From Escherichia phage mEpX1, in the sequence record NC_019709.1: a stretch of DNA of 41,567 nt; one strand, written 5' to 3'. The notes beneath the pieces are model-generated. The model had not been told where the DNA came from, did not search any database, and was given only the letters and a program-made list of their open reading frames with translations. The translations under genes were made by a program, and so were the position numbers. Shown here one piece after another: positions 3,979-19,043 of this stretch (the first letter of the stretch is position 1; every line of letters begins with the position of its first letter).

Positions 3979-5133
3979 ATGTCTGAACTCGCTCTCATTC
4001 AAAAAGCTATCGAAGAATCCCAGCAGAAAATGACCCAGCTTTTCGATGCGCAGAAAGCAGAAATCGAAAGCACAGGCCAGGTTTCCAAACAGTTGCAGTC
4101 CGACCTGATGAAAGTACAGGAAGAGCTGACCAAATCCGGCGCTCGCCTCTTCGATCTGGAACAGAAACTGGCATCCGGCGCTGAGAATCCTGGTGAGAAG
4201 AAATCCTTCTCTGAACGGGCTGCTGAAGAGCTTATTAAGTCATGGGACGGTAAACAGGGCACCTTTGGCGCTAAAACGTTTAACAAGTCACTAGGCAGTG
4301 ACGCTGGTTCGGCTGGCTCACTGATCCAGCCTATGCAGATCCCAGGCATCATCATGCCAGGCCTGCGCCGTCTTACCATTCGTGATCTGCTGTCTCAGGG
4401 CCGCACTTCCAGTAACGCTCTGGAATATGTGCGTGAAGAGGTGTTTACCAATAACGCCGACGTGGTGGCAGAGAAAGCACTGAAGCCAGAATCGGATATC
4501 ACCTTCAGCAAACAAACCGCGAACGTGAAGACCATCGCGCACTGGGTGCAGGCATCACGTCAGGTGATGGATGATGCGCCAATGCTTCAGTCCTACATTA
4601 ACAACCGCCTCATGTACGGCCTGGCACTGAAGGAAGAGGGCCAGCTGCTGAACGGCGACGGTACCGGGGATAACCTGGAAGGGCTGAACAAAGTGGCAAC
4701 CGCCTATGACACCTCGCTGAATGCCACCGGCGACACCCGCGCTGACATTATCGCTCACGCTATTTATCAGGTGACCGAGTCTGAGTTCAGCGCTTCCGGT
4801 ATCGTCCTGAACCCGCGCGACTGGCACAACATCGCGTTGCTGAAAGACAATGAAGGCCGCTATATCTTCGGTGGTCCTCAGGCATTCACCAGTAACATCA
4901 TGTGGGGCTTGCCAGTGGTTCCGACTAAGGCGCAGGCCGTCGGCACCTTTACCGTAGGCGGTTTCGATATGGCCTCACAGGTCTGGGATCGCATGGATGC
5001 CACCGTGGAAGTTAGCCGTGAAGACCGCGATAACTTCGTGAAAAACATGCTGACCATCCTGTGCGAAGAGCGTCTGGCGCTGGCGCATTATCGCCCGACA
5101 GCAATCATCAAGGGCACCTTCTCTGCTGACTAA
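3979..5133 (+). CDS. Major capsid protein (HK97 fold) with N-terminal delta domain
   Basis: 384-aa ORF with coiled-coil-like N-terminal ~100 aa, then capsid body; from memory it closely resembles HK97 gp5. Confidence 0.9.
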   Translation: MSELALIQKAIEESQQKMTQLFDAQKAEIESTGQVSKQLQSDLMKVQEELTKSGARLFDLEQKLASGAENPGEKKSFSERAAEELIKSWDGKQGTFGAKTFNKSLGSDAGSAGSLIQPMQIPGIIMPGLRRLTIRDLLSQGRTSSNALEYVREEVFTNNADVVAEKALKPESDITFSKQTANVKTIAHWVQASRQVMDDAPMLQSYINNRLMYGLALKEEGQLLNGDGTGDNLEGLNKVATAYDTSLNATGDTRADIIAHAIYQVTESEFSASGIVLNPRDWHNIALLKDNEGRYIFGGPQAFTSNIMWGLPVVPTKAQAVGTFTVGGFDMASQVWDRMDATVEVSREDRDNFVKNMLTILCEERLALAHYRPTAIIKGTFSAD

Positions 5134-6683: not shown

Positions 6684-7388
6684 ATGTCTGCACTTTATGA
6701 AAAATCGCAGCTGACGAAGATCCTTATTTCCTCCCTGCCGTCCACCAAAGAAACGATGGATTCCGCCACCTTTCTCGATCTGAGTTGCACCATCAAAGAA
6801 ATTCAGTTCACTGGTGGCCAGAAGCAGGATATCGACGTAACAACACTTTGCTCTACCGAGCAGGAGAACATCAACGGCCTGCCTTCTCCGTCAGAAATCT
6901 CTCTGTCCGGCAACTTCTACAATAATCCAGCGCAGGACGCCTTGCGTGATGCGTATGACAACGACACCACTTACGGCTTCCAGATCATCTTCCCGTCAGG
7001 TAATGGTTTTAAGTTCCTGGCCGAAGTTCGCCAGCATACCTGGTCATCTGGTACCAATGGTGTTGTGGCAGCTACATTCTCACTGCGCCTTAAAGGCAAG
7101 CCTGTCCCGATTGACTCTGTACTTAAACTGACCACTGATCTTCCTTCCTCACTGTCTGTAGCGGTGGGGGCTGCGATCAGCATGGCTGTAGTAGCTGCCG
7201 GTGGTAAGCCTCCGTATGCCTACACCTGGAAGAAGGCAGGTAGCACCGTCAGCGGGCAGACATCCGATACCTTTAATAAAGCCACCGCAGTTTCAGGTGA
7301 TGCAGGTGATTACACCTGTGTGGTTACGGATTCTTCTTCTCCGGTCAAAACGGTTACCTCAGCTGCCTGCACCCTTACTATCAGTTAA
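6684..7388 (+). CDS. Major tail protein with C-terminal Ig-like domain (lambda V-like)
   Basis: 234-aa ORF; C-terminal ~80 aa shows a Big_2-like pattern (GDAGDYTCVVTD...TLTIS); position before G/T chaperones. Confidence 0.8.
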   Translation: MSALYEKSQLTKILISSLPSTKETMDSATFLDLSCTIKEIQFTGGQKQDIDVTTLCSTEQENINGLPSPSEISLSGNFYNNPAQDALRDAYDNDTTYGFQIIFPSGNGFKFLAEVRQHTWSSGTNGVVAATFSLRLKGKPVPIDSVLKLTTDLPSSLSVAVGAAISMAVVAAGGKPPYAYTWKKAGSTVSGQTSDTFNKATAVSGDAGDYTCVVTDSSSPVKTVTSAACTLTIS

Positions 7389-7422
7389 TGGAGATGCCGG
7401 GTTGTCCCGGCATGGATAAGCG

Positions 7423-7809
7423 ATGTCGCAAACTTTAAAACAATTAGCCATGGCGAAAATGGCTGGCTTTCGCCATAAGACGGTCGTTGTCCCTGAGTGG
7501 GAAGGTGTCAAAGTGGTTCTCCGTGAGCCGTCAGGTGAAGCCTGGCTGCGCTGGCAGGAGGTGGTGAAAGGGGGGGCCGACGATGAAAATGTGTCGGTAT
7601 CGGAAAAGGCGCACCGTAATCTTTGCGCTGACGTGGTGCTCTTCATTGACGTTCTGTGTGACACCGATAAGCAACCGGTATTCAGCGTAGACGAAGAAGA
7701 GCAGGTGCGTGAAATTTACGGGCCCGTGCACTCACGTCTGCTCAAACAGGCGCTTGACCTGATCAACAATGCGGACGAAGCGCGGGAAAAGTCTCAACCC
7801 CCGGCGTAA
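7423..7809 (+). CDS. Tail assembly chaperone (lambda G-like)
   Basis: 128-aa ORF between major tail protein and tape measure; the -1 frame is open from 7758 across its stop. Confidence 0.7.
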   Translation: MSQTLKQLAMAKMAGFRHKTVVVPEWEGVKVVLREPSGEAWLRWQEVVKGGADDENVSVSEKAHRNLCADVVLFIDVLCDTDKQPVFSVDEEEQVREIYGPVHSRLLKQALDLINNADEAREKSQPPA

Positions 7810-8096
7810 AGTTTCTGATGTCGCTTGCGCTCCGGATGGGGCGCACGCTCTCAGAGCTTCGGCAGAATATGACGGCAAGCGAGCTTCTGATGTGGATTGA
7901 GTACGACAGGCAAAGCCCGGTTGGCGATATTCGCGGTGATATCCATGCAGCGCAGATTGTCTCTGCCATCTACGGCTCGCAGGGGGCAAAAGTACCGCTG
8001 GACGATGCGATCCTGCGCTGGGGTGGTGATGAGCAATCAGAACCGAAGGACCCGTTTGCAGGGCTTGAGGCGGCACTTACAGCTGCGACACAATAA
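7758..8096 (+). CDS. T-like extension of tail chaperone, probably made as a G-T fusion by -1 frameshift
   Basis: The -1 frame relative to the G-like ORF is open from 7758 through the 7818-8096 ORF; A-rich gggaaaag (7784-7791) lies ~20 nt before the G stop. Confidence 0.55.
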   Translation, partial: PDQQCGRSAGKVSTPGVKFLMSLALRMGRTLSELRQNMTASELLMWIEYDRQSPVGDIRGDIHAAQIVSAIYGSQGAKVPLDDAILRWGGDEQSEPKDPFAGLEAALTAATQ

Positions 8097-8153
8097 TTGC
8101 TTCACATGCCTTCAATGTAGCGATACGCTCTTTCCTTAAGTAAAGGAGGCGTT

Positions 8154-8342
8154 ATGGAACCACTGGTAGTAGTGTTTGGAATATTCGGCTGGCTGATAAA
8201 TCTAATTGTGATTTTTTATTTATTACGGTTTAGCACAAGGGCAAATGAACAAGTTGAAGCCCTTAAAGAGATAAATAAAAAGCAAGATGCGCAAATAGAT
8301 TTATTAATACAAGTCGCTCACCAAAGAAAAGACAGTTTATAA
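8154..8342 (+). CDS. Small single-pass membrane protein, tail-module moron (HK97 gp15-like position)
   Basis: 62 aa; hydrophobic N-terminal helix then charged helical tail; own SD (aaggagg), lower GC than flanks, terminator downstream; inserted between chaperones and tape measure. Confidence 0.6.
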   Translation: MEPLVVVFGIFGWLINLIVIFYLLRFSTRANEQVEALKEINKKQDAQIDLLIQVAHQRKDSL

Positions 8343-8349
8343 CTCACGA

Positions 8350-8373
8350 CCCGCTATCAAGCGGGTTTTTTTT
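8350..8373 (+). terminator. Intrinsic terminator after moron
   Basis: Stem cccgc/gcggg with tatcaa loop plus T8, followed by ATGGG. Confidence 0.6.
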
Positions 8374-11300
8374 ATGGGTGAAAATATGGCTACGTTGCGC
8401 GAACTGATCATCAAAATATCTGCAAACTCTCAGTCATTCCAGTCTGAAATTTCTCGTGCTTCAAGAATGGGGAATGACTATTACCGGGTAATGCAGACTG
8501 GAGGACGCCAATCGGCCGCAGCTTCGCGTGAAACTCAGCGTGCCTTGGCTGAGGTAACTAGTCAAATAAACACCGCGAAGGCCTCAGCACTGGGAATGGC
8601 TGGTGCATTTGCTGGAGCATTTGCGACTGGTCATCTTATATCGCTGGCCGATGAATGGAGCTCTGTTAATGCCAGGCTAAAGCAGGCTTCCCAGTCGTCA
8701 GATGATTTCACGGAGTCCCAGCGGGCGCTGATGGATATTAGCCAGCGAACCGGAACCGCCTTCTCTGATAATGCGAGTCTTTTTGCGCGTTCAGCCGCTT
8801 CTATGCGTGAATATGGCTACAGTTCAGAAGAGGTTCTGAAGGTAACCGAGGCTATATCAACAGGGCTTAAGCTGTCAGGCGCAAGCGCGTCTGAAGCGAG
8901 TTCGGTAATCACGCAGTTCAGCCAGGCTCTGGCGCAGGGTGTTCTTCGAGGCGAGGAATTTAACTCCGTCAACGAAAACGGTGATCGAGTTATCCGTGCT
9001 CTTGCCGCAGGGATGGGTGTAGCTCGTAAAGATCTGAAGGCAATGGCCGATCAGGGGATGCTAACCGCAGATAAAGTTGTCCCGGCCCTGATAAGTCAAC
9101 TTGGCACTATGCGTGGTGAATTTGAGGCAATGCCGCAGACCGTTTCTGCTGCCACGACGAAAGTCGAAAATGCTTTCATGGCATGGGTAGGTGGCGCTAA
9201 TGAAGCCACTGGTGCGACAAGTACTCTTGTTGCCGTATTGAATACGGTTTCTGACAATATAGACACTGTGGCTACGGCTGCCGGAGCTTTGGCTGCGATA
9301 GGTGGAGCTCGCTATCTTGGAGGGATGTTTGGCGATCTTGGGAACCAGACGGCGCAATTAATAGATGCCAGAAAGAACGAAATTGCGCTCGCAGCTGCAA
9401 GGGCTGAATCTGCTACCCAATCACAACGCAAGGCCGCCGCCGATGCTATTGCTGCTGAGCGAGCTTACCAGCTTGCTCAGTCAGAACTTGTGCTGGCAAA
9501 GAATACTAATGCTGAGGCTACTGCCACTCAAAATGCCATATCCAAGCGCCGGGCAATGATTACAGCAAATGCGGCACTGGTACAGTCAAACAGAGCCGTT
9601 GCAGCCTCTCAGCAGGCACTTAACTCTGCAACATCAGTGCTGGGGCTTGTAAAAACTGGCGCTACGGGTCTTTTGTCGTTAGTTGGTGGTTTGCCAGGAA
9701 TTTTAATGTTGGGTGCTGGGGCGTGGTACACGATGTATCAACGCCAAGAACAAGCCAGGGAATCTGCAATCCAATATGCGGACACAATCGAGCAGGTACG
9801 AGATAATCTGAAATCAATGTCTCAGACGCAGATATCCGCCAACCTTGGACAGGCGAATATTTCACTGGATGCTCAGAATAGTGCGATTGAACAGCAGAAG
9901 CAGAAAGTTGCTGAATTATCCAATCAACTTTATAACGCAAAATTAGCAGCCAATTCTGCTTCAGAGGGGACATGGCTGTATAACGATGCGGTTGAGAAAG
10001 CCGCAGACTTTGCTTCAGAACTTGCGGTTGAAGAAGGCCGACTTGAGCAAATGCTCAATAAAAGAAAGCAAACACAACAGTTAATAAACGACATAACTGA
10101 TCAGGCTATAAATAAAACAGTAGAAATGGCTGGCGCCGTAAGTTCTCTTACAGAGATGTATGACCGGCTGAACAAGGTTTCCAGACAGTCTACAGCAGTG
10201 TCCCCACCAAAATATGCAGGACCTGTACTTCCTGCGCTTGATAATAAGCAACAACAAGCTATTGAGAAAGCACAGCGACAGCTTGAGCTATCTGGCCTTC
10301 AGGGTTTGGATAAGGCTCGAAAGCAGGCAGAATTCGATGCATCTGATCTGAACCTTCCAGCTGGTTGGCGTGAGAAATATGTCAGCATGGAAGTTGAGTC
10401 TGCCAGGCAATTACAAGCAATTCGTAACTCAAGCCGCCATAAGGGTGGAAAATCCGAGGCGGAAAAAACAGCTGATACCTATGACAAGCTGATCAAGCAG
10501 CAAAAAGAGCAGATCGCTCTGCAAGGGCAGAATACCGAGCTGGCAAAGGTTAAATATCAGGTAAGCCAGGGTGAGCTTTCTACGCTAAGTCAGGCCCAGA
10601 AAGCCGAAGTTATGCGTAATGCTGCTCTCATCGATCAGGTTAAATTGCGTGAGCAACTGCGAAATTACGAAGCCAACCTTGCTGACAGTAACGCCAGCGC
10701 CCGCGCAGCCAATGAAGCGCAACTGCTGGGCTACGGGCAGGGAACCAGGTTCCGTGAAAGACTTCAGGAGCAGTTCAGTCTGCGTAAGGAGTTTGAGCAG
10801 AAGAATACCGATCTTCTCCGCCAGCGTCAGGCTGGTGAAATCGACGAGACGTTCTATCAGCAGGGGCTGGCACTTAATAAGCGCTACCTCGAAGAGCGCC
10901 TGCGCGACCAGGAGGGATATTACGCAGCTTCTGATGCGCAGCGTGACGACTGGATGACGGGACTGTCTGAGGGTTATGCGAACTGGGTGGATGAAGCGAC
11001 AGATTACTCCTCCATGGCAGCTGACGGGATGAAGCAGGCAATGGGTGGGGCGGTAACTTCGATTACTGACATGCTCAATGGTAACGTCGACAGCTGGAAG
11101 GACTGGGGTGTCAGCGTACTGAAGATCATCCAGAATGTTCTGGTCAATATGGCTGTTGCTAACGGCGTCAGTTCAATTGGTTCTCTCTTCAGCTTTGGCG
11201 CATCTTCCGCCGCTGCCGCCAGTAGCGGTACTGCAATTCAGAACGCTGGCGCGAACTTCACCTTTAACGCGAAGGGTAATGTTTACGACTCTCCGTCCCT

Positions 11301-11652
11301 GAGCGCATACAGCAATGGCGTGTTTCAGACCCCTCAGCTTTTTGCTTTTGCCAAAGGAGCGGGTGTGTTTGCAGAGGCTGGACCTGAAGCCATTATGCCG
11401 CTTACCCGTGCTGCTGATGGTTCGCTTGGCGTTCGGGCTGTTGGCACTGGTGGTGGTCAGGCTGTATCTTCGGCTCCACAGGTTTACATCACCATCGATG
11501 GCAACGGAAATACTTCCACGCAGACTTCACCCGGCCTTGAGCAATTTGGTGCTGATGTCGGTAAATATATTGATCAGCGATATAAGCAGAACATCATGCG
11601 AGATATTCGGCCTGGCGGTGACATCTGGAACGCAATGAAAGGAACCCGATAA
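8374..11652 (+). CDS. Tail tape measure protein
   Basis: 1092-aa ORF, Ala/Gln-rich coiled-coil composition, upstream of M-L-K; alternative start ATG at 8386. Confidence 0.9.
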   Translation: MGENMATLRELIIKISANSQSFQSEISRASRMGNDYYRVMQTGGRQSAAASRETQRALAEVTSQINTAKASALGMAGAFAGAFATGHLISLADEWSSVNARLKQASQSSDDFTESQRALMDISQRTGTAFSDNASLFARSAASMREYGYSSEEVLKVTEAISTGLKLSGASASEASSVITQFSQALAQGVLRGEEFNSVNENGDRVIRALAAGMGVARKDLKAMADQGMLTADKVVPALISQLGTMRGEFEAMPQTVSAATTKVENAFMAWVGGANEATGATSTLVAVLNTVSDNIDTVATAAGALAAIGGARYLGGMFGDLGNQTAQLIDARKNEIALAAARAESATQSQRKAAADAIAAERAYQLAQSELVLAKNTNAEATATQNAISKRRAMITANAALVQSNRAVAASQQALNSATSVLGLVKTGATGLLSLVGGLPGILMLGAGAWYTMYQRQEQARESAIQYADTIEQVRDNLKSMSQTQISANLGQANISLDAQNSAIEQQKQKVAELSNQLYNAKLAANSASEGTWLYNDAVEKAADFASELAVEEGRLEQMLNKRKQTQQLINDITDQAINKTVEMAGAVSSLTEMYDRLNKVSRQSTAVSPPKYAGPVLPALDNKQQQAIEKAQRQLELSGLQGLDKARKQAEFDASDLNLPAGWREKYVSMEVESARQLQAIRNSSRHKGGKSEAEKTADTYDKLIKQQKEQIALQGQNTELAKVKYQVSQGELSTLSQAQKAEVMRNAALIDQVKLREQLRNYEANLADSNASARAANEAQLLGYGQGTRFRERLQEQFSLRKEFEQKNTDLLRQRQAGEIDETFYQQGLALNKRYLEERLRDQEGYYAASDAQRDDWMTGLSEGYANWVDEATDYSSMAADGMKQAMGGAVTSITDMLNGNVDSWKDWGVSVLKIIQNVLVNMAVANGVSSIGSLFSFGASSAAAASSGTAIQNAGANFTFNAKGNVYDSPSLSAYSNGVFQTPQLFAFAKGAGVFAEAGPEAIMPLTRAADGSLGVRAVGTGGGQAVSSAPQVYITIDGNGNTSTQTSPGLEQFGADVGKYIDQRYKQNIMRDIRPGGDIWNAMKGTR

Positions 11653-11654
11653 AA

Positions 11655-11993
11655 ATGGCTATCGAAACTTTCACCTGGTGCCCACGACTTAACGCTGAGG
11701 CAGATATAAATTTCCGCGTCAGGAAAGCACAGTTTGGTGATGGATATGAGCAGGTTTCAGGGGATGGATTGAATACCAGAACCCAGCAGTGGACGCTCAA
11801 CTTTACTGGCAACGAAACCTACATTTCCGCCATTAAATCTTTTCTCGACAGGCATGAAGGAACGAAAGCCTTTCAATGGAAGCCGCCGCTCGAGCCTTTG
11901 GGTTTGTATCGTTGCGAAACGTATAAACCCACTGGGCTGGGTGCGGGAAAATTCAACCTTGAAGCAACATTCATCCAGGCATTTAAACCATGA
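11655..11993 (+). CDS. M: Minor tail protein M
   Basis: 112 aa, directly after tape measure; size and position match lambda gpM. Confidence 0.75.
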   Translation: MAIETFTWCPRLNAEADINFRVRKAQFGDGYEQVSGDGLNTRTQQWTLNFTGNETYISAIKSFLDRHEGTKAFQWKPPLEPLGLYRCETYKPTGLGAGKFNLEATFIQAFKP

Positions 11994-12748
11994 GCTTAAA
12001 CGCAGACTATCAGAAGCTTGAATCCGGAAACGATGTTCGTCTGATTGAGGTGGACGGTTCTTCCTTTGGGCTAACGGACGTTCTCCGCTTTCACAATTAC
12101 CGCATTCCCCACACGGAAGCGGAAATCATCGCCGCTGGTGGGGATGAGTCCAAGCTTCCGGCGAAACCAATCTGGTGGCAGGGAAATGAATACGCCGCCT
12201 GGCCGTATCAGCTGGAAGGCCTGGAAAAATCAACCAGTGGGAGCAATGCAACGCCATCACTGACGGTTGCGAACATCGAAAGCTCTATTTCTGCCATGTG
12301 TCTTGCGTATGACGATCTGCTGCAGGCGAAAGTCACTATTCACGACACAAAAGAGAAATATCTCGATGCCAGAAATTTCGCGGACGGCAACCCCACAGCA
12401 GACCAGACTCAGGAAAAGCTGCAGGTCTGGTATATCGACGGGAAAACTGGCGAGCTTGCCGGTGAAACCGTTGAATTTGTTCTGTCCAGCCCGATGGACC
12501 TGCAGGGGCAAATGATCCCGACGCGACAGCTTCATTCCCTGTGTACCTGGTGCATCCGGAATAAATATCGTACCGGCGACGGCTGCGACTATGCCGGCAC
12601 CCGCTATTTCGATAAAAACAACAACCCGGTAAGCGATCCGTCGCTGGATGAATGCAATGGCACGCTGACGGCCTGCAAACTCCGATTCGGCGAAAATAAC
12701 GAACTCTCGTTTGGTGGCTTCCCTGGTACGTCGCTGATCAGGAGTTGA
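11990..12748 (+). CDS. L: Minor tail protein L
   Basis: 252 aa; C-terminal Cys cluster (CTWC...CDYAG...C...C) as in the Fe-S-binding lambda gpL; position. Confidence 0.75.
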   Translation: MSLNADYQKLESGNDVRLIEVDGSSFGLTDVLRFHNYRIPHTEAEIIAAGGDESKLPAKPIWWQGNEYAAWPYQLEGLEKSTSGSNATPSLTVANIESSISAMCLAYDDLLQAKVTIHDTKEKYLDARNFADGNPTADQTQEKLQVWYIDGKTGELAGETVEFVLSSPMDLQGQMIPTRQLHSLCTWCIRNKYRTGDGCDYAGTRYFDKNNNPVSDPSLDECNGTLTACKLRFGENNELSFGGFPGTSLIRS

Positions 12749-12749
12749 T

Positions 12750-13460
12750 ATGCGTCAGAAAACCATCGATGCGATTATGGCGCATGCCGCCGCTGAATAT
12801 CCTCGTGAGTGCTGCGGTGTGGTGGCGCAAAAAAGCCGTGTTGAACGTTATTTTCCTTGCCGGAATCTTGCCGCTGCGCCGAAGGAAAATTTTGTCCTCT
12901 GCCCGGAAGATTACGCAGCTGCTGAGGACTGGGGTACGGTGATCGCCATCGTTCACAGCCACCCTGACGCCACTACGCAGCCGAGCGAACTGGATAAAGC
13001 GCAATGCGACGCAACGCTTTTACCCTGGCATATCGTGAGCTGGCCCGAGGGGGATTTACGTACCATTCAGCCGCGTGGTGAGTTGCCACTGCTGGAGCGT
13101 CCGTTTGTGCTTGGACACTTCGACTGCTGGGGGCTGGTAATGAGCTATTTCCGGCAGACCCACGGTATCGAGCTCCACGATTACCGGGTTGATTATCCCT
13201 GGTGGGAAAACGACTATCCGGACAACTTCTATCAGGATTGCTGGTATGAGTGCGGATTCCGGGAATTCGACGGGCCACCGAAACCCGGCGATATGGTGAT
13301 CATGCAGGTCCAGGCTGATAAGTGGAACCACGCTGGAATTCTGCTGGAGGGCAATATGCTGCTGCACCACCTGTACGGACATCTGAGCCAACGCGTGCCG
13401 TATGGTGGCTACTGGCAGGAAAGGACGATGAAGATTCTTAGACATCAGAATTTTATTTAA
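12750..13460 (+). CDS. K: Tail assembly protein K (JAMM/MPN plus NlpC/P60-like)
   Basis: 236 aa; JAMM-like HSHPD motif and Cys/His hydrolase-like C-terminal half; position after L. Confidence 0.8.
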   Translation: MRQKTIDAIMAHAAAEYPRECCGVVAQKSRVERYFPCRNLAAAPKENFVLCPEDYAAAEDWGTVIAIVHSHPDATTQPSELDKAQCDATLLPWHIVSWPEGDLRTIQPRGELPLLERPFVLGHFDCWGLVMSYFRQTHGIELHDYRVDYPWWENDYPDNFYQDCWYECGFREFDGPPKPGDMVIMQVQADKWNHAGILLEGNMLLHHLYGHLSQRVPYGGYWQERTMKILRHQNFI

Positions 13461-13507
13461 CAAACTGTCACTGATACTATCGTGTAGTACACGGCAAGGA
13501 GAACGAT

Positions 13508-13732
13508 ATGTATACAGTTGGGTTTGGTTGGATCTTCGTCGGTATTTTTATTGGGTTAATTCTCTGGTTTTTCATCAACCGCGCCAGCGTCAGAGCGAAC
13601 AGGCAGGTTGAATTACTTGAGTCTATCGACCAGAAATTATCAAAAATAGTAGATCCAAACTTCGAGGCAAATAACAAAGACCAGTCGAAAGAAAACTACC
13701 TTGAAGAAGCAAGGAAAAAAGCTGGGCTTTGA
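13508..13732 (+). CDS. Small single-pass membrane protein, second tail-module moron (paralog of 8154-8342)
   Basis: 74 aa; shares a TM helix and the core R-[FA]-S-[TV]-R-A-N-x-Q-V-E with the 8154 ORF; own SD (aaggag); terminator downstream; sits between K and I. Confidence 0.55.
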   Translation: MYTVGFGWIFVGIFIGLILWFFINRASVRANRQVELLESIDQKLSKIVDPNFEANNKDQSKENYLEEARKKAGL

Positions 13733-13747
13733 GAGCGTAAATTAACA

Positions 13748-13771
13748 AACCACCTACGGGTGGTTTTTTTA
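13748..13771 (+). terminator. Intrinsic terminator after second moron
   Basis: Stem aaccacc/ggtggtt plus T7, followed by ATGGG. Confidence 0.55.
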
Positions 13772-13781
13772 TGGGGGCAGC

Positions 13782-14390
13782 ATGCAAGAGGTAATGACAA
13801 GAATTGAGCTAAGTGGCGTGCTAGCTAAGACATATGGAAGGGTTCATCACCGTCTGGTTCGCACTACTGCTGAAGCCATTAATGCACTCGCGAAAACCAT
13901 CAATGGATTCGAGAAATTCTTAAACACAAGCAAAGCCCGAGGGCTGACGTATGCCGTTTATAGAGATAAAAAGAATATTGGCGTTGATGATCTCGGCTTT
14001 CCCGTCACCGGCGAAGTGATCCGGATTGTCCCTGTAGTAATAGGGAGTAAAAAGGCTGGTCTTTTGCAGACGATCTTGGGGGCCGTGCTTATTACTGCTG
14101 CTGTGTTGACTGGCCCCGGCGGTATTGGCGCTGCTTTCGCTGCTGGTGGATTGACGGGGTTTGCTGCTGCCACTGGTGCCTCGTTGGTCCTCGGTGGGGT
14201 TATTCAGCTGCTTTCACCGCAGCCATCAGGCATAGCCAGTAAACAAAGCGCAGATAACCGTGCATCGTATGCGTTTGGCGGGGTAACCAACACTGCAGCG
14301 CAAGGCTACCCGGTGCCTCTGCTTTATGGTAAGCGTCGAATCGGCGGAGCGATTATTTCTGCAGGAATTTATGTCGAAGATCAGCAGTAG
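13782..14390 (+). CDS. I: Tail assembly protein I
   Basis: 202 aa with Gly/Ala-rich hydrophobic C-terminal half; position between K and J. Confidence 0.7.
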   Translation: MQEVMTRIELSGVLAKTYGRVHHRLVRTTAEAINALAKTINGFEKFLNTSKARGLTYAVYRDKKNIGVDDLGFPVTGEVIRIVPVVIGSKKAGLLQTILGAVLITAAVLTGPGGIGAAFAAGGLTGFAAATGASLVLGGVIQLLSPQPSGIASKQSADNRASYAFGGVTNTAAQGYPVPLLYGKRRIGGAIISAGIYVEDQQ

Positions 14391-14409
14391 ATAACTAACC
14401 TTTTTTCTG

Positions 14410-14431
14410 GCCACCTTCGGGTGGCTTTTTT
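14410..14431 (+). terminator. Terminator-like hairpin before J
   Basis: Stem gccacc/ggtggc with ttcg tetraloop plus T6, followed by ATGGG. Confidence 0.5.
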
Positions 14432-14442
14432 ATGGGCGCAAT

Positions 14443-17400
14443 ATGGCTACAGATAAAGTGTTAAAAGGCCGCAAGGGCGGCAGCTCAAGTTCCCGAACCC
14501 CTACCGAACAGCCTGATGATCTGCAATCTGTAGCGAAGGCAAAAATCCTCGTTGCGCTTGGGGAAGGTGAGTTTGCAGGGCAGCTCACCGGCAAAGATAT
14601 CTACCTGGACGGAACAGCGCTGGAGAATGCTGACGGCTCCCAAAACTTCAGCGGGGTAACGTGGGAGTTTCGCGCGGGAACTCAGGCGCAAAAATATATT
14701 CAGGGTATTCCCGGTACCGAAAACGAGATCAGCGTAGGAACTGAGGTATCAAGTGCCACAGCCTGGACGCGCACGTTTACCAATACGCAGCTTTCAGCAG
14801 TTCGCCTGCGTCTTAAATGGCCCTCGCTTTTCAAACAGGAAGACGACGGCGATCTGGTGGGTTACTCGGTCAATTATGCGATTGACCTACAGACGGACGG
14901 CGGCACATGGCAGACGGTACTCAATACCAGCGTGACCGGTAAAACGACGTCTGGTTATGAGCGCAGCCACCGTATCGATTTACCGCAGGCTGGCAGCACC
15001 TGGACAATACGTCTGCGTAAGATTACCTCTGACGCCAACAGCGCGAAGATCGGCGACACGATGATGCTGCAGAGCTTCACCGAGGTGATTGACGCCAAAC
15101 TGCGCTACCCGAACACCGCGCTGCTCTACGTCGAATTCGACTCAAGCCAGTTCAACGGCTCTATTCCTCAAATTTCATGCGAACCGCGCGGCCGCGTTAT
15201 CCGCGTTCCAGATACCTACGACCCTGAAACCCGCACTTATAGCGGTACATGGACCGGTGCGTTTAAGTGGGCATGGACGGATAACCCTGCGTGGATTTTT
15301 TACGACCTGGTTGTTTCTGACCGGTTCGGCCTTGGGCACCGTTTGACCGCTGCGAATATTGATAAATGGACGCTTTATCAGGTTGCTCAGTATTGTGATC
15401 AGATGGTACCAGACGGCAAAGGGGGCAACGGTACAGAACCACGTTATACCTGCAACGTGTACATTCAGGACCGGAACGACGCCTACACAGTCCTGCGTGA
15501 TTTTGCCGCTATCTTCCGTGGCATGACCTACTGGGGCGGGGATCAGATTGTGGCCCTGGCTGACATGCCGCGCGATGTTGATTACAGCTATACGCGCGCT
15601 AACGTTGTTGGCGGTCGCTTCACCTATTCGAGCAGCACCACGAAAAGCCGCTACACCACAGCGCTGGTTTCATGGTCAGACCCGGGTAACGCTTATGCCG
15701 ACGCAATGGAGCCGGTATTTGAGCAGGCGCTGGTGGCGCGATACGGCTTCAATCAGCTGGAAATGACAGCCATCGGCTGCACCAGGCAGTCAGAGGCGAA
15801 CCGAAAGGGGCGCTGGGGTATTCTCACCAACAACAAGGATCGCGTTGTTTCGTTTGATGTCGGGCTGGACGGAAACATTCCGCAGCCGGGCTACATCATC
15901 GCCGTGGCAGACGAGCTGCTTTCCGGAAAGGTTATGGGCGGCCGCATCAGCGCCGTTAACGGTCGCGTTATCAAACTTGACCGCGTAGCTGATGCAGCAC
16001 CAGGTGATCGCCTTATTCTCAACCTGCCTTCCGGAGCGTCGCAGAGCAGGACCATTCAGGCCGTGAACGGGGAATCAGTCACAGTCACCACGGCATACAG
16101 TGAGACGCCACAGGCCGAAGCTGTTTGGGTGGTTGAATCTGACGAGCTTTACGCGCAGCAGTATCGTGTTGTCAGCGTCTCCGACAACGGTGATGGCACT
16201 TTCTCAATCACCGGCGCATGGCACGACCCGGATAAATATGCCCACATCGATACCGGAGCCATCATTGACCAGCGGCCGGTGAGCGTGATCCCGCCTGGTA
16301 ACCAGTCGCCGCCTGCGAACATCGTGATCAGCTCGTTTTCCGTGGTGCAGCAAAATATCAGCGTCGAAACGATGCGCGTGAGCTGGGACCAGGCGCAGAA
16401 CGCTATCGCCTATGAAGCGCAATGGCGCCGCAACGACGGGAACTGGGTTAACGTGCCGCGCACCTCCACCACGTCATTCGACGTCCCGGGGATTTATGCC
16501 GGGCGCTACCTGGTGCGGGTGCGCGCAATCAATGCCGCAGAAATTTCATCCGGATGGGGCTATTCAGAAGAGAAAACGCTGACGGGTAAAGTGGGCAATC
16601 CACCTAAGCCGGTTGGCTTCATCGCTTCTGAAAATGTGGTTTTCGGCATCGAGCTGAACTGGGGATTCCCGGCGAATACCGACGACACGCTGAAGACGGA
16701 AATTCAGTACAGCCTGACCGGAACCGAGGACGATGCGATACTGCTGGCCGATGTGCCTTATCCGCAGCGCAAATATCAGCAGATGGGCCTCAAGGCTGGG
16801 CAGATTTTCTGGTACCGCGCTCAGCTGGTGGACCGCAGCGGCAACGAATCAGGGTACACAGAATGGGTGCGAGGACAGGCCAGCATCGATGTTTCCGACA
16901 TCACAGATGTGATCCTGGAGGACATGAAAGGCTCCGATACGTTCAAAGACCTGATCGAGAACGCTGTGGACAGCAATGAAAAAATTGCTGGCATGGCTGA
17001 CGACATCAAACAGGCTAACGATGAACTTGAGCTCCAGGCGCAGGAAATCGCAAAAAACGCGCAGGACATTGGGCAGGTTCAGACCAGCGTTAATGAGCTT
17101 TCTAGCACGGTCGGTGATGTGTCGTCTTCTCTCTCAGATCTTGAGCAGACTGTTGCGACTGCTGATACCGCACTGGGCCAGCGAATCGACAGCATCAGCG
17201 TGTCTATGGACGGCATGACGGGCGGGGTGAAGAACTCTGCTATCGCAATTATCCAGAACGGGCTGGCACAAGTGGCTACGCGTAAATCGTTGTCAGCTTC
17301 GGTCGCAGGGAACAGTGCGCAGCTGGATCGTATTGATGAGGTAATCGTTAACGAGAAGGAGGCAACGGCGCGTTCTCTGCTGAGCCTGCAGACGGATGTC

Positions 17401-18298: not shown

Positions 18299-18936
18299 TG
18301 GCCGAATTTGGCGCGATGATATTAATGGACAACGGGAACCCATTTGTAACGCCCCAGTCAACGCCTTTTTGTCTTTACGGCAAGTACACTTTCAACTCCT
18401 CTGCTAATGGCAGTTCGCAGCAGGTTGCTCAGAATATTGCATTAAATGCTGACTACCCTGTGATGGTATTTATCAGGACCACAAATACCGCCCAGCCCAC
18501 GCCAGTAATATCTTACCGGAACGGCGGAAATATATATGTCGCGGGGGTTAATCCCTATAACCAGAGCTTCACGTTAACCGCATATATTTTTGCCATATTT
18601 CCCCAGACGTTACCGAAATGGGGGATGGCCATCTGGGATTCGAGCGGGAAGCTGGTACTCACTAATGAGTCCCGCGTGCTGTCAGACTTGCAGACAATCG
18701 GAACGCCTGGAGCAAACGGCGGGATTAACATTGACCAGACGCTTGATGGTTCATGGGCAGTGGCTCCATCAAGGCTGGGGCAAGTGAACAGAAACGACGC
18801 TTACTCATCTTGTAGGTATTCAGGCACAAGTACAAGAATAAACGCCGGTACAGCCGCAAATACACCTGGCGGTGCTGGAGGGGTGATAAATAATGGAATT
18901 ATCCTGACAGCAATTAAAACAGACGCCTATGATTGA
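18298..18936 (+). CDS. Hypothetical protein (possible tail-tip accessory)
   Basis: 212-aa ORF; start overlaps upstream stop (ATAATG); Gly/Asn-rich C-terminus. Confidence 0.5.
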   Translation: MAEFGAMILMDNGNPFVTPQSTPFCLYGKYTFNSSANGSSQQVAQNIALNADYPVMVFIRTTNTAQPTPVISYRNGGNIYVAGVNPYNQSFTLTAYIFAIFPQTLPKWGMAIWDSSGKLVLTNESRVLSDLQTIGTPGANGGINIDQTLDGSWAVAPSRLGQVNRNDAYSSCRYSGTSTRINAGTAANTPGGAGGVINNGIILTAIKTDAYD

Positions 18937-19043
18937 TTGTTTTGAGCGATCAATAACAAATAATTTATCTATCTAATCAATTATATCCATCGATTATGTA
19001 TTGGTATCTTCGAAGCTACTGAATACCTCTGGATACTATCAAA

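Follow-up and report, generated by a model that had tools for sequence, protein, structure and literature searches.

gp20 of phage mEpX1, a YebO-family moron between tail genes K and I with a distribution independent of its paralogue gp15

The lambdoid siphophage mEpX1 of Escherichia (PV340543.1), which belongs to the Hendrixvirinae and resembles HK97, carries a short open reading frame between tail genes K and I. A reading made from the sequence alone had proposed that this ORF encodes a small membrane protein related to the product of another moron of the same tail operon, and that the two copies were either acquired separately, possibly with different specificities, or work together as a pair. 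The locus raises the question of what this gene is, whether it is maintained and expressed as a gene in its own right, and which of these relationships with its paralogue agrees with the way both are distributed among related phages. All coordinates refer to the window, i.e. the whole 41,567-nt stretch of DNA that was analysed, unless another record is named; over its K-I region (12700-14500) the window matches the mEpX1 record PV340543.1 at 100% identity. The relevant features are the following:

8154..8342, + strand: gp15, homologue of the HK97 superinfection-exclusion protein, 62 aa, at the T/H junction, without the C-terminal motif
8348..8367, + strand: terminator hairpin of the gp15 moron (-13.0 kcal/mol, z=-4.8), followed by a T-run
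12750..13460, + strand: tail gene K, left flank of the gp20 insertion
13472..13480, + strand: candidate extended -10 promoter TGATACTAT (TG-n-TACTAT), from the comparison of cassettes
13496..13501, + strand: Shine-Dalgarno sequence AAGGAG, 6 nt before the gp20 ATG, read from the sequence
13508..13732, + strand: gp20 CDS, ATG start, 74 aa, phage-clade YebO-family protein
13747..13769, + strand: intrinsic terminator with an 8-bp stem, a 4-nt loop and a T-run (hairpin 13747-13766; -12.2 kcal/mol, z=-3.1)
13782..14390, + strand: tail gene I, right flank of the gp20 insertion

Identity of gp20 and structure of its cassette

The K/I element is the already catalogued gp20 moron, and its recognition from the sequence was correct but largely ordinary. 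The ORF is labelled 'hypothetical protein, gp20' in PV340543, where the 8154 ORF is named 'Gp15 exclusion protein'; HK022 gp20 (AAF30371) is a 'moron gene product' in AF069308, and both gp20 and gp15 bear the RefSeq name 'YebO family protein' in E. coli genomes. A search of the accessible literature found neither an experiment on gp20 nor a function assigned to it, and PADLOC (which has no matching model), NCBIfam and Rfam gave no meaningful matches for gp20, gp15 or the window. What comparison adds to this record is a selection signal, a promoter motif, three insertion sites, a C-terminal motif and the independence of the two copies. Two related records deserve some caution. Product names in the ECP1 record (KY979108; L061 6551-7533) appear to be one gene off, with 'YebO' placed on K and 'minor tail protein L' on M. 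In the mEp506 record (PV340542; L058 2174-5453, 6551-7260) the tape measure gene is broken up into several CDS, and so is K, for which frameshifts or sequencing errors could be the cause.

The gp20 CDS is the sole long ORF in its frame. Its product starts with a transmembrane (TM) helix at about residues 5-23, continues with a juxtamembrane helix (NRASVRANRQVELLESI) and a linker that varies, and has the motif YLEEARKKAGL at the C-terminus. The N-terminal TM helix noticed in the sequence-only reading is predicted by two approaches: the Kyte-Doolittle 19-residue maximum is 2.36 at residues 5-23, and the AlphaFold2 monomer model, which contains helices only (pLDDT 72), has an unbroken helix over 3-48, separated by D-P-N from a second, low-confidence helix at 52-71. 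The N-terminal side of the TM helix is without charge and three Arg follow it directly, so that the positive-inside rule predicts an N-out/C-in orientation. gp20 is accordingly predicted to be a bitopic inner-membrane protein with about 4 residues outside, one TM helix and a cytoplasmic tail of some 50 residues.

The resemblance to the 8154 moron had been put forward on the basis of two 16-residue strings, which match at 10 of their 16 positions. It is well above chance in a pairwise alignment (BLASTP, 43% identity over 44 aa, E=5e-9), and both proteins belong to Pfam family PF13974 (YebO; 47.7 bits for gp20 and 38.7 bits for gp15, above the gathering score of 27) and to phrog_5031 (E=7e-41 and 4e-29, respectively). 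gp20 is thus detectably homologous to gp15, and the 8154 product itself has 98.4% amino acid identity with HK97 gp15. When aligned with YebO of K-12 and with 38 orthologues from chromosomes, gp20 shows the YebO-type layout, i.e. an N-terminal TM helix followed by an N-R-A-S-x-R-A/T-N-x-Q ... L-L helix. The chromosomal C-terminus, ..F(K/I)(D/R)(F/L)I(A/P)ER, and the fixed chromosomal locus (adjoining mgrB in E. coli K-12) are absent. Since gp20 ends in YLEEARKKAGL, a C-terminus that unites most phage-borne members as opposed to chromosomal YebO, and sits in a tail operon, it is a member of a phage-borne subclade and not an orthologue of the host protein.

The element as a whole is a complete moron cassette of about 320 bp between K and I, consisting of a candidate promoter, a Shine-Dalgarno sequence, a 74-codon gene and a terminator. 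It displays the features of morons in the sense of Juhala/Hendrix 2000: insertion between genes that are adjacent in relatives, a terminator of its own and a composition unlike that of its neighbours. GC content is 0.40-0.42 over the gp20 element against 0.55-0.60 in K; taken together, the gp20 and gp15 elements range over 0.35-0.42, and the gene upstream of each is at about 0.55-0.60. The location of a second, paralogous moron at another junction of the operon, with its own Shine-Dalgarno sequence and downstream terminator, is therefore as it had been described. The K/I terminator is annotated as such in HK97, HK75, HK633, mEp234 and others, and nearly all cassettes examined close with a GC-rich hairpin and a T-run.

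A standard sigma-70 -35/-10 scan of positions 7500-15000 found no promoter upstream of the gp20 ORF, and the extended -10 motif surfaced only when cassettes were compared. Thirteen YebO-type moron cassettes from E. coli, Enterobacter, Kosakonia, Serratia, Pantoea and Klebsiella elements, whose upstream DNA is otherwise diverged, were included in this comparison, and TGnTAnnnT lies 36-42 nt before the start codon in ten of them (background 4.8e-4 per nt, or about 0.003 expected per cassette). The hexamers encountered are TACTAT, TAATAT, TAGTAT, TAGGAT, TATCAT, TAAGGT, TAAAGT and TATGTT; no TGnTAnnnT was found upstream of gp15. With the extended -10 at 13472-13480, the transcript is predicted to start near 13487, with a leader of about 21 nt carrying the Shine-Dalgarno sequence. 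The conserved motif suggests an independent, hence prophage, expression of gp20 and is the strongest available argument for it.

The sequence GGGGG at 13773-13777, just after the gp20 terminator, can serve as a Shine-Dalgarno sequence for gene I. The terminators at 8348-8376, 13747-13775 and 14409-14435 share the ending ...TTTTTTATGGG just before the start of the next gene, and the G-run of such tail-operon terminators may supply a downstream Shine-Dalgarno sequence once an insertion has broken translational coupling.

Conservation, insertion sites and distribution

The gp20 gene is real and under strong purifying selection. The absence of CDS differences within the E. coli phage group does not allow dN/dS to be computed there, and Enterobacter and Kosakonia orthologues were used instead, giving values of 0.04-0.08. 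The 225-nt CDS has 0 differences in 12 relatives, against 8-10% in gene K just upstream. In Serratia, Pantoea and other prophages (50-76% identity), NRASVRANxQ..LLESI is invariant and the C-terminal EEARKKAGL nearly so, and the gp20-type linker between these two conserved blocks varies in sequence and length. At the nucleotide level, about 700 bp (~13392 to ~14070) are nearly the same in 13 phages and an Enterobacter sichuanensis prophage; this stretch takes in the 3' end of K, the whole moron and the first (5') half of I, beyond which the 3' half of I differs by up to 5%. This block looks like a recently shared and sharply bounded recombination or mosaic segment. The gpI protein is 100% identical in every gp20-carrying E. 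coli phage examined, and the perfect linkage of gp20 with gpI in E. coli phages results from this shared block.

The sole difference in the CDS among the 13 phages is found in HK97 (AF069529, ~nt 13656; L002 6905-6907, equivalent to window position 13604), where a CAG->TAG change turns codon 33 of gene 20 into an amber codon. This explains why no gp20 is annotated in the HK97 numbering. HK97 is healthy with an interrupted gene 20, which is thus dispensable. The amber fragment, of 32 residues, retains the TM helix, and Gln would be restored in a supE host.

Insertion at K/I is polymorphic. In E. coli SZQ1, which has an HK97-like prophage with gp15, the overlapping stop codon of K and start codon of I read TAATG and no insert separates the two genes, which also overlap in Pantoea-type prophages with an H/M cassette. 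Cassettes of the gp20 type occupy K/I in E. coli phages and in Enterobacter, Kosakonia and Serratia prophages, H/M in Pantoea and a related prophage, and T/H in Pantoea rwandensis. Cassettes of the phage clade are always linked to tail genes, at T/H, H/M or K/I in lambdoids and, in the tail regions of other siphophages, immediately before the tape measure gene. The K/I slot of HK140, LMessi and Fraca holds unrelated small ORFs (phrog_914, phrog_2320).

These alternative cargo loci lie at 7291-7632 in HK140 (L055), 7293-7982 in LMessi (L056) and 7372-7983 in Fraca (L057), and a further one at 4278-4610 in Serratia (L006); Serratia fonticola has both a gp20-type gene and, behind it, a gene of phrog_914. 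The I/J spacer of mEpX1 (14391-14442; 52 nt, no ORF) contains a third intrinsic terminator at 14409-14426 (-12.7 kcal/mol, z=-3.4). The same junction holds 500-700 bp of morons (gp22, gp23/srb, DUF2594) in HK97, HK022 and mEp506, and the mEpX1 spacer has the appearance of a moron slot that is minimal or has been emptied.

The survey of relatives revealed that either copy can be found alone. Among distinct sequenced E. coli phages, 13 have gp20 and 8 have gp15, and the two are found together in 8 sequenced HK97-like phages. HK022, mEp235, HK542, mEp506 and ECP1 carry gp20 without gp15, as do all the prophages examined from Enterobacter, Kosakonia, Serratia and Pantoea. The SZQ1 prophage has gp15 without gp20, and two more genomes contain gp15 moron DNA with no match to gp20 moron DNA. 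No operon with both copies was found outside the E. coli group. gp20 also occurs together with three types of tape measure protein, which are 43-100% identical.

The element is rare in E. coli genomes (7/5426). An exhaustive profile search recovered only 60 cluster representatives of the family among 1.84 billion proteins, and members with an identified genome source are all from Enterobacterales. A scan of genome contigs returned mostly chromosomal yebO orthologues, prophage copies accounting for 7 of 45 loci. Four gp15-like proteins (P0058, P0080, P0081 and P0085) possess the gp20-type C-terminal motif; the genes of P0058 and P0085, the two whose context was examined, precede the tape measure gene in the tail regions of other siphophages. 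Three variants of the Klebsiella T/H YebO-like protein (P0054, P0065 and P0071) diverge after a shared N-terminal part and are devoid of YLEEARKKAGL, which suggests recurrent loss of the tail and may parallel the tail-less HK97 gp15.

The simplest reading of these data is that a single phage-borne clade, marked by a short N-terminus and the YLEEARKKAGL tail, arose from host yebO. Under the same reading, the gp15 of mEpX1 and HK97 would have come from this clade without its tail and gp20 with its middle segment replaced, and the two would have met in one operon through recombination and not through local duplication. The suggestion that the copies were acquired separately, possibly with different specificities, fits the independent distribution of the two cassettes.

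Possible functions of gp20

According to the authors' commentary (PMC3594210), HK97 gene 15 is an archetypal moron whose product belongs to the YebO family, is made from the prophage, resides in the inner membrane and blocks the entry of HK97 and HK75. We favour, at about even confidence, a comparable role for gp20: that of a prophage-expressed inner-membrane exclusion protein acting alone, with a target range unlike that of gp15. The term exclusion is here derived from homology. Its own extended -10 promoter would drive the synthesis of gp20 in the lysogen, with further synthesis late in infection when the antiterminated late transcript reads through. Acting alone and within the inner-membrane plane, gp20 would prevent the DNA conduit that certain incoming siphophages form from their tape measure protein from making contact with the membrane or with a host factor residing there, and superinfection would thereby be excluded after adsorption. 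The tape measure protein of lambda forms a trans-envelope channel that inner-membrane transporters possibly stabilise (PMC12617516). Since almost nothing of gp20 is predicted to be periplasmic, the block would have to come from within the membrane or from its cytoplasmic face, where the partner of gp20 could be an ejected protein, contacted at its TM segment, or else an inner-membrane factor of the host. Because gp20 is found with three tape-measure types, a specificity matched to the tape measure protein, like that of gp15, is not simply transferable to it.

A match between gp20 and its neighbour gpI was also considered and seems unlikely: lambda gpI is proposed to insert its hydrophobic helices into the outer membrane (PMC11101478, PMC12617516), whereas gp20 is predicted to be in the inner membrane with scant periplasmic exposure.

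Membership in the family is no guarantee of exclusion, and the core of gp20 is nearer to that of host YebO than the core of gp15 is. gp20 might instead be a lysogenic-conversion factor that keeps or mimics the role of host YebO, for example through the same membrane partner, much as sensors or transporters are modulated by other small proteins, and have nothing to do with phage entry. A run of 13 residues (IGLILWFFINRAS) identical in gp20 and K-12 YebO, the 73% identity of their cores and the fact that NRASVRANEQ is the consensus of chromosomal YebO across Enterobacterales speak for this possibility. Host yebO is moreover co-transcribed with mgrB, YebO itself being uncharacterised (PMC5861431), and its knock-down alters fitness under antibiotics (PMC12063145). 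We nevertheless hold such mimicry to be unlikely, for phage copies are without the chromosomal C-terminus, most having YLEEARKKAGL in its place, they occur only in siphophage tail operons beside tape-measure or tip genes, and the sole characterised phage member, gp15, is an exclusion protein (PMC3594210). A mainly lytic role, in which gp20 would be produced by read-through of the Q-antiterminated late operon and would not be a prophage function, appears less probable still. gp20 could then shield the infected cell from secondary injections, or spare progeny a wasteful injection into doomed cells. It lies on the coding strand within the late tail operon, like all family members, the standard sigma-70 scan was negative and the promoter evidence consists of a motif. 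Yet a purely late gene would need neither an extended -10 conserved at a fixed distance nor a dedicated terminator, and gp15 is expressed from the prophage (PMC3594210).

The proposal that the two proteins form a working pair fares worse. An obligatory inner-membrane hetero-oligomer of gp15 and gp20 could be imagined for homologous single-pass proteins whose helical juxtamembrane segments could pack together, and the two genes do co-occur in the 8 HK97-like phages. But gp20 stands alone in HK022 and the other E. coli phages and enterobacterial prophages listed above, gp15 does so in SZQ1 and perhaps in the two genomes with gp15 moron DNA only, and no two-copy operon was met outside the E. coli group. 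HK97, the very phage in which gp15 exclusion was demonstrated, has the amber codon in gene 20. An obligate pair is thus not supported, and we regard it as very improbable. Hardly credible, finally, is the idea that the ORF is a decaying or non-functional passenger; the tolerance of HK97 for a nonsense mutation and the rarity of the element would agree with it, but not the low dN/dS, the motifs invariant across genera and an ORF intact in 12 of 13 phages.

If gp20 is a second exclusion protein with targets of its own, HK97-like prophages would possess a layered entry immunity, with Cor acting at the outer membrane and gp15 and gp20 at the inner membrane. Cor, an exclusion protein of the outer-membrane level, is encoded at about 18730-18970 of the window, as judged by homology to L001 13345-13578, so that the tail region of mEpX1 has up to three candidate entry-blocking morons. 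A broader view, which we advance tentatively and with more doubt than conviction, is that phage-borne YebO proteins are self-contained exclusion cassettes hopping among a few permissive tail-operon junctions, that gp20 and gp15 represent two specificity classes closing different inner-membrane entry routes, and that the C-terminal motif docks a cytoplasmic or membrane factor of the host. Lysogens of the mEpX1 type would then carry stacked and non-redundant entry blocks in addition to Cor at the outer membrane.

Should exclusion by gp20 be real, the small YebO fold would be a compact and evolvable scaffold against siphophage DNA delivery. It would also bear on the prediction of phage-therapy failure in lysogens and on the way the tape-measure conduit engages the inner membrane, and would open a way to study host YebO, itself uncharacterised. 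For now, the finding is mostly the rediscovery of an annotated moron, with comparative details that sharpen the experiment.

Comparison with known systems

The closest known counterparts of mEpX1 gp20 are the gp20 of HK022 and the copies in HK75, HK106, HK446, HK542, HK544, HK633, mEp234, mEp235, mEp506 and ECP1. These are the same gene: the protein is 100% identical to that of mEpX1, at the same K/I position and with the same terminator, and there is no difference of substance.

HK97 gp15 (Cumby et al. 2012; PMC3594210) shares with gp20 its Pfam family, PHROG, kind of cassette and tail operon, as well as an architecture made of a short N-terminus, one TM helix and an R-x-S-x-RAN-x-Q helix. 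The two differ in their junctions (T/H for gp15, K/I for gp20) and in their travelling partners, gp15 being associated with the HK97-type G-T-H module and gp20 with one gene I allele. In addition, gp15 retains a YebO-like KQxAQIDLL segment and is without YLEEARKKAGL, whereas gp20 has this motif and a different middle segment.

Both types can be related to a 77-aa protein encoded at T/H in Klebsiella prophages (for example QBQ71586 of ST101-KPC2phi6.3), which is 47% identical to gp20 as well as to gp15. Its C-terminus, DYLEEARKKAGLI, is as in gp20 and its middle segment, KQSAQIDLLIALAH, as in gp15. The cassette has an extended -10 motif and a terminator and is present in a single copy at the gp15 position. 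This protein looks like a fuller form from which the gp15 and gp20 types are both derivable.

[quoted passage not shown] None of the three has a sequence relationship to gp20, SieA having three TM segments and Ltp being a lipoprotein, and the likeness is one of analogy only.

Host YebO (E. coli b1825, downstream of mgrB) belongs to PF13974 and has a TM helix and an NRASVRAN(E/R)Q..LL core nearly as in gp20. Over 30 aa of the TM-proximal core, gp20 is 73% identical to it, compared with 38% for gp15. Neither overexpression nor deletion of host YebO affected HK97 (PMC3594210). The N-terminus of the host protein is about 10 residues longer than that of gp20, and the host protein has an EQQKKQxxLL second helix, a C-terminus of the form ..FKDFIAER or ..RLIPER and a fixed chromosomal locus. 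gp20, by contrast, has an Arg in place of the Glu in RANxQ, a different tail and a position in the tail operon of a prophage.
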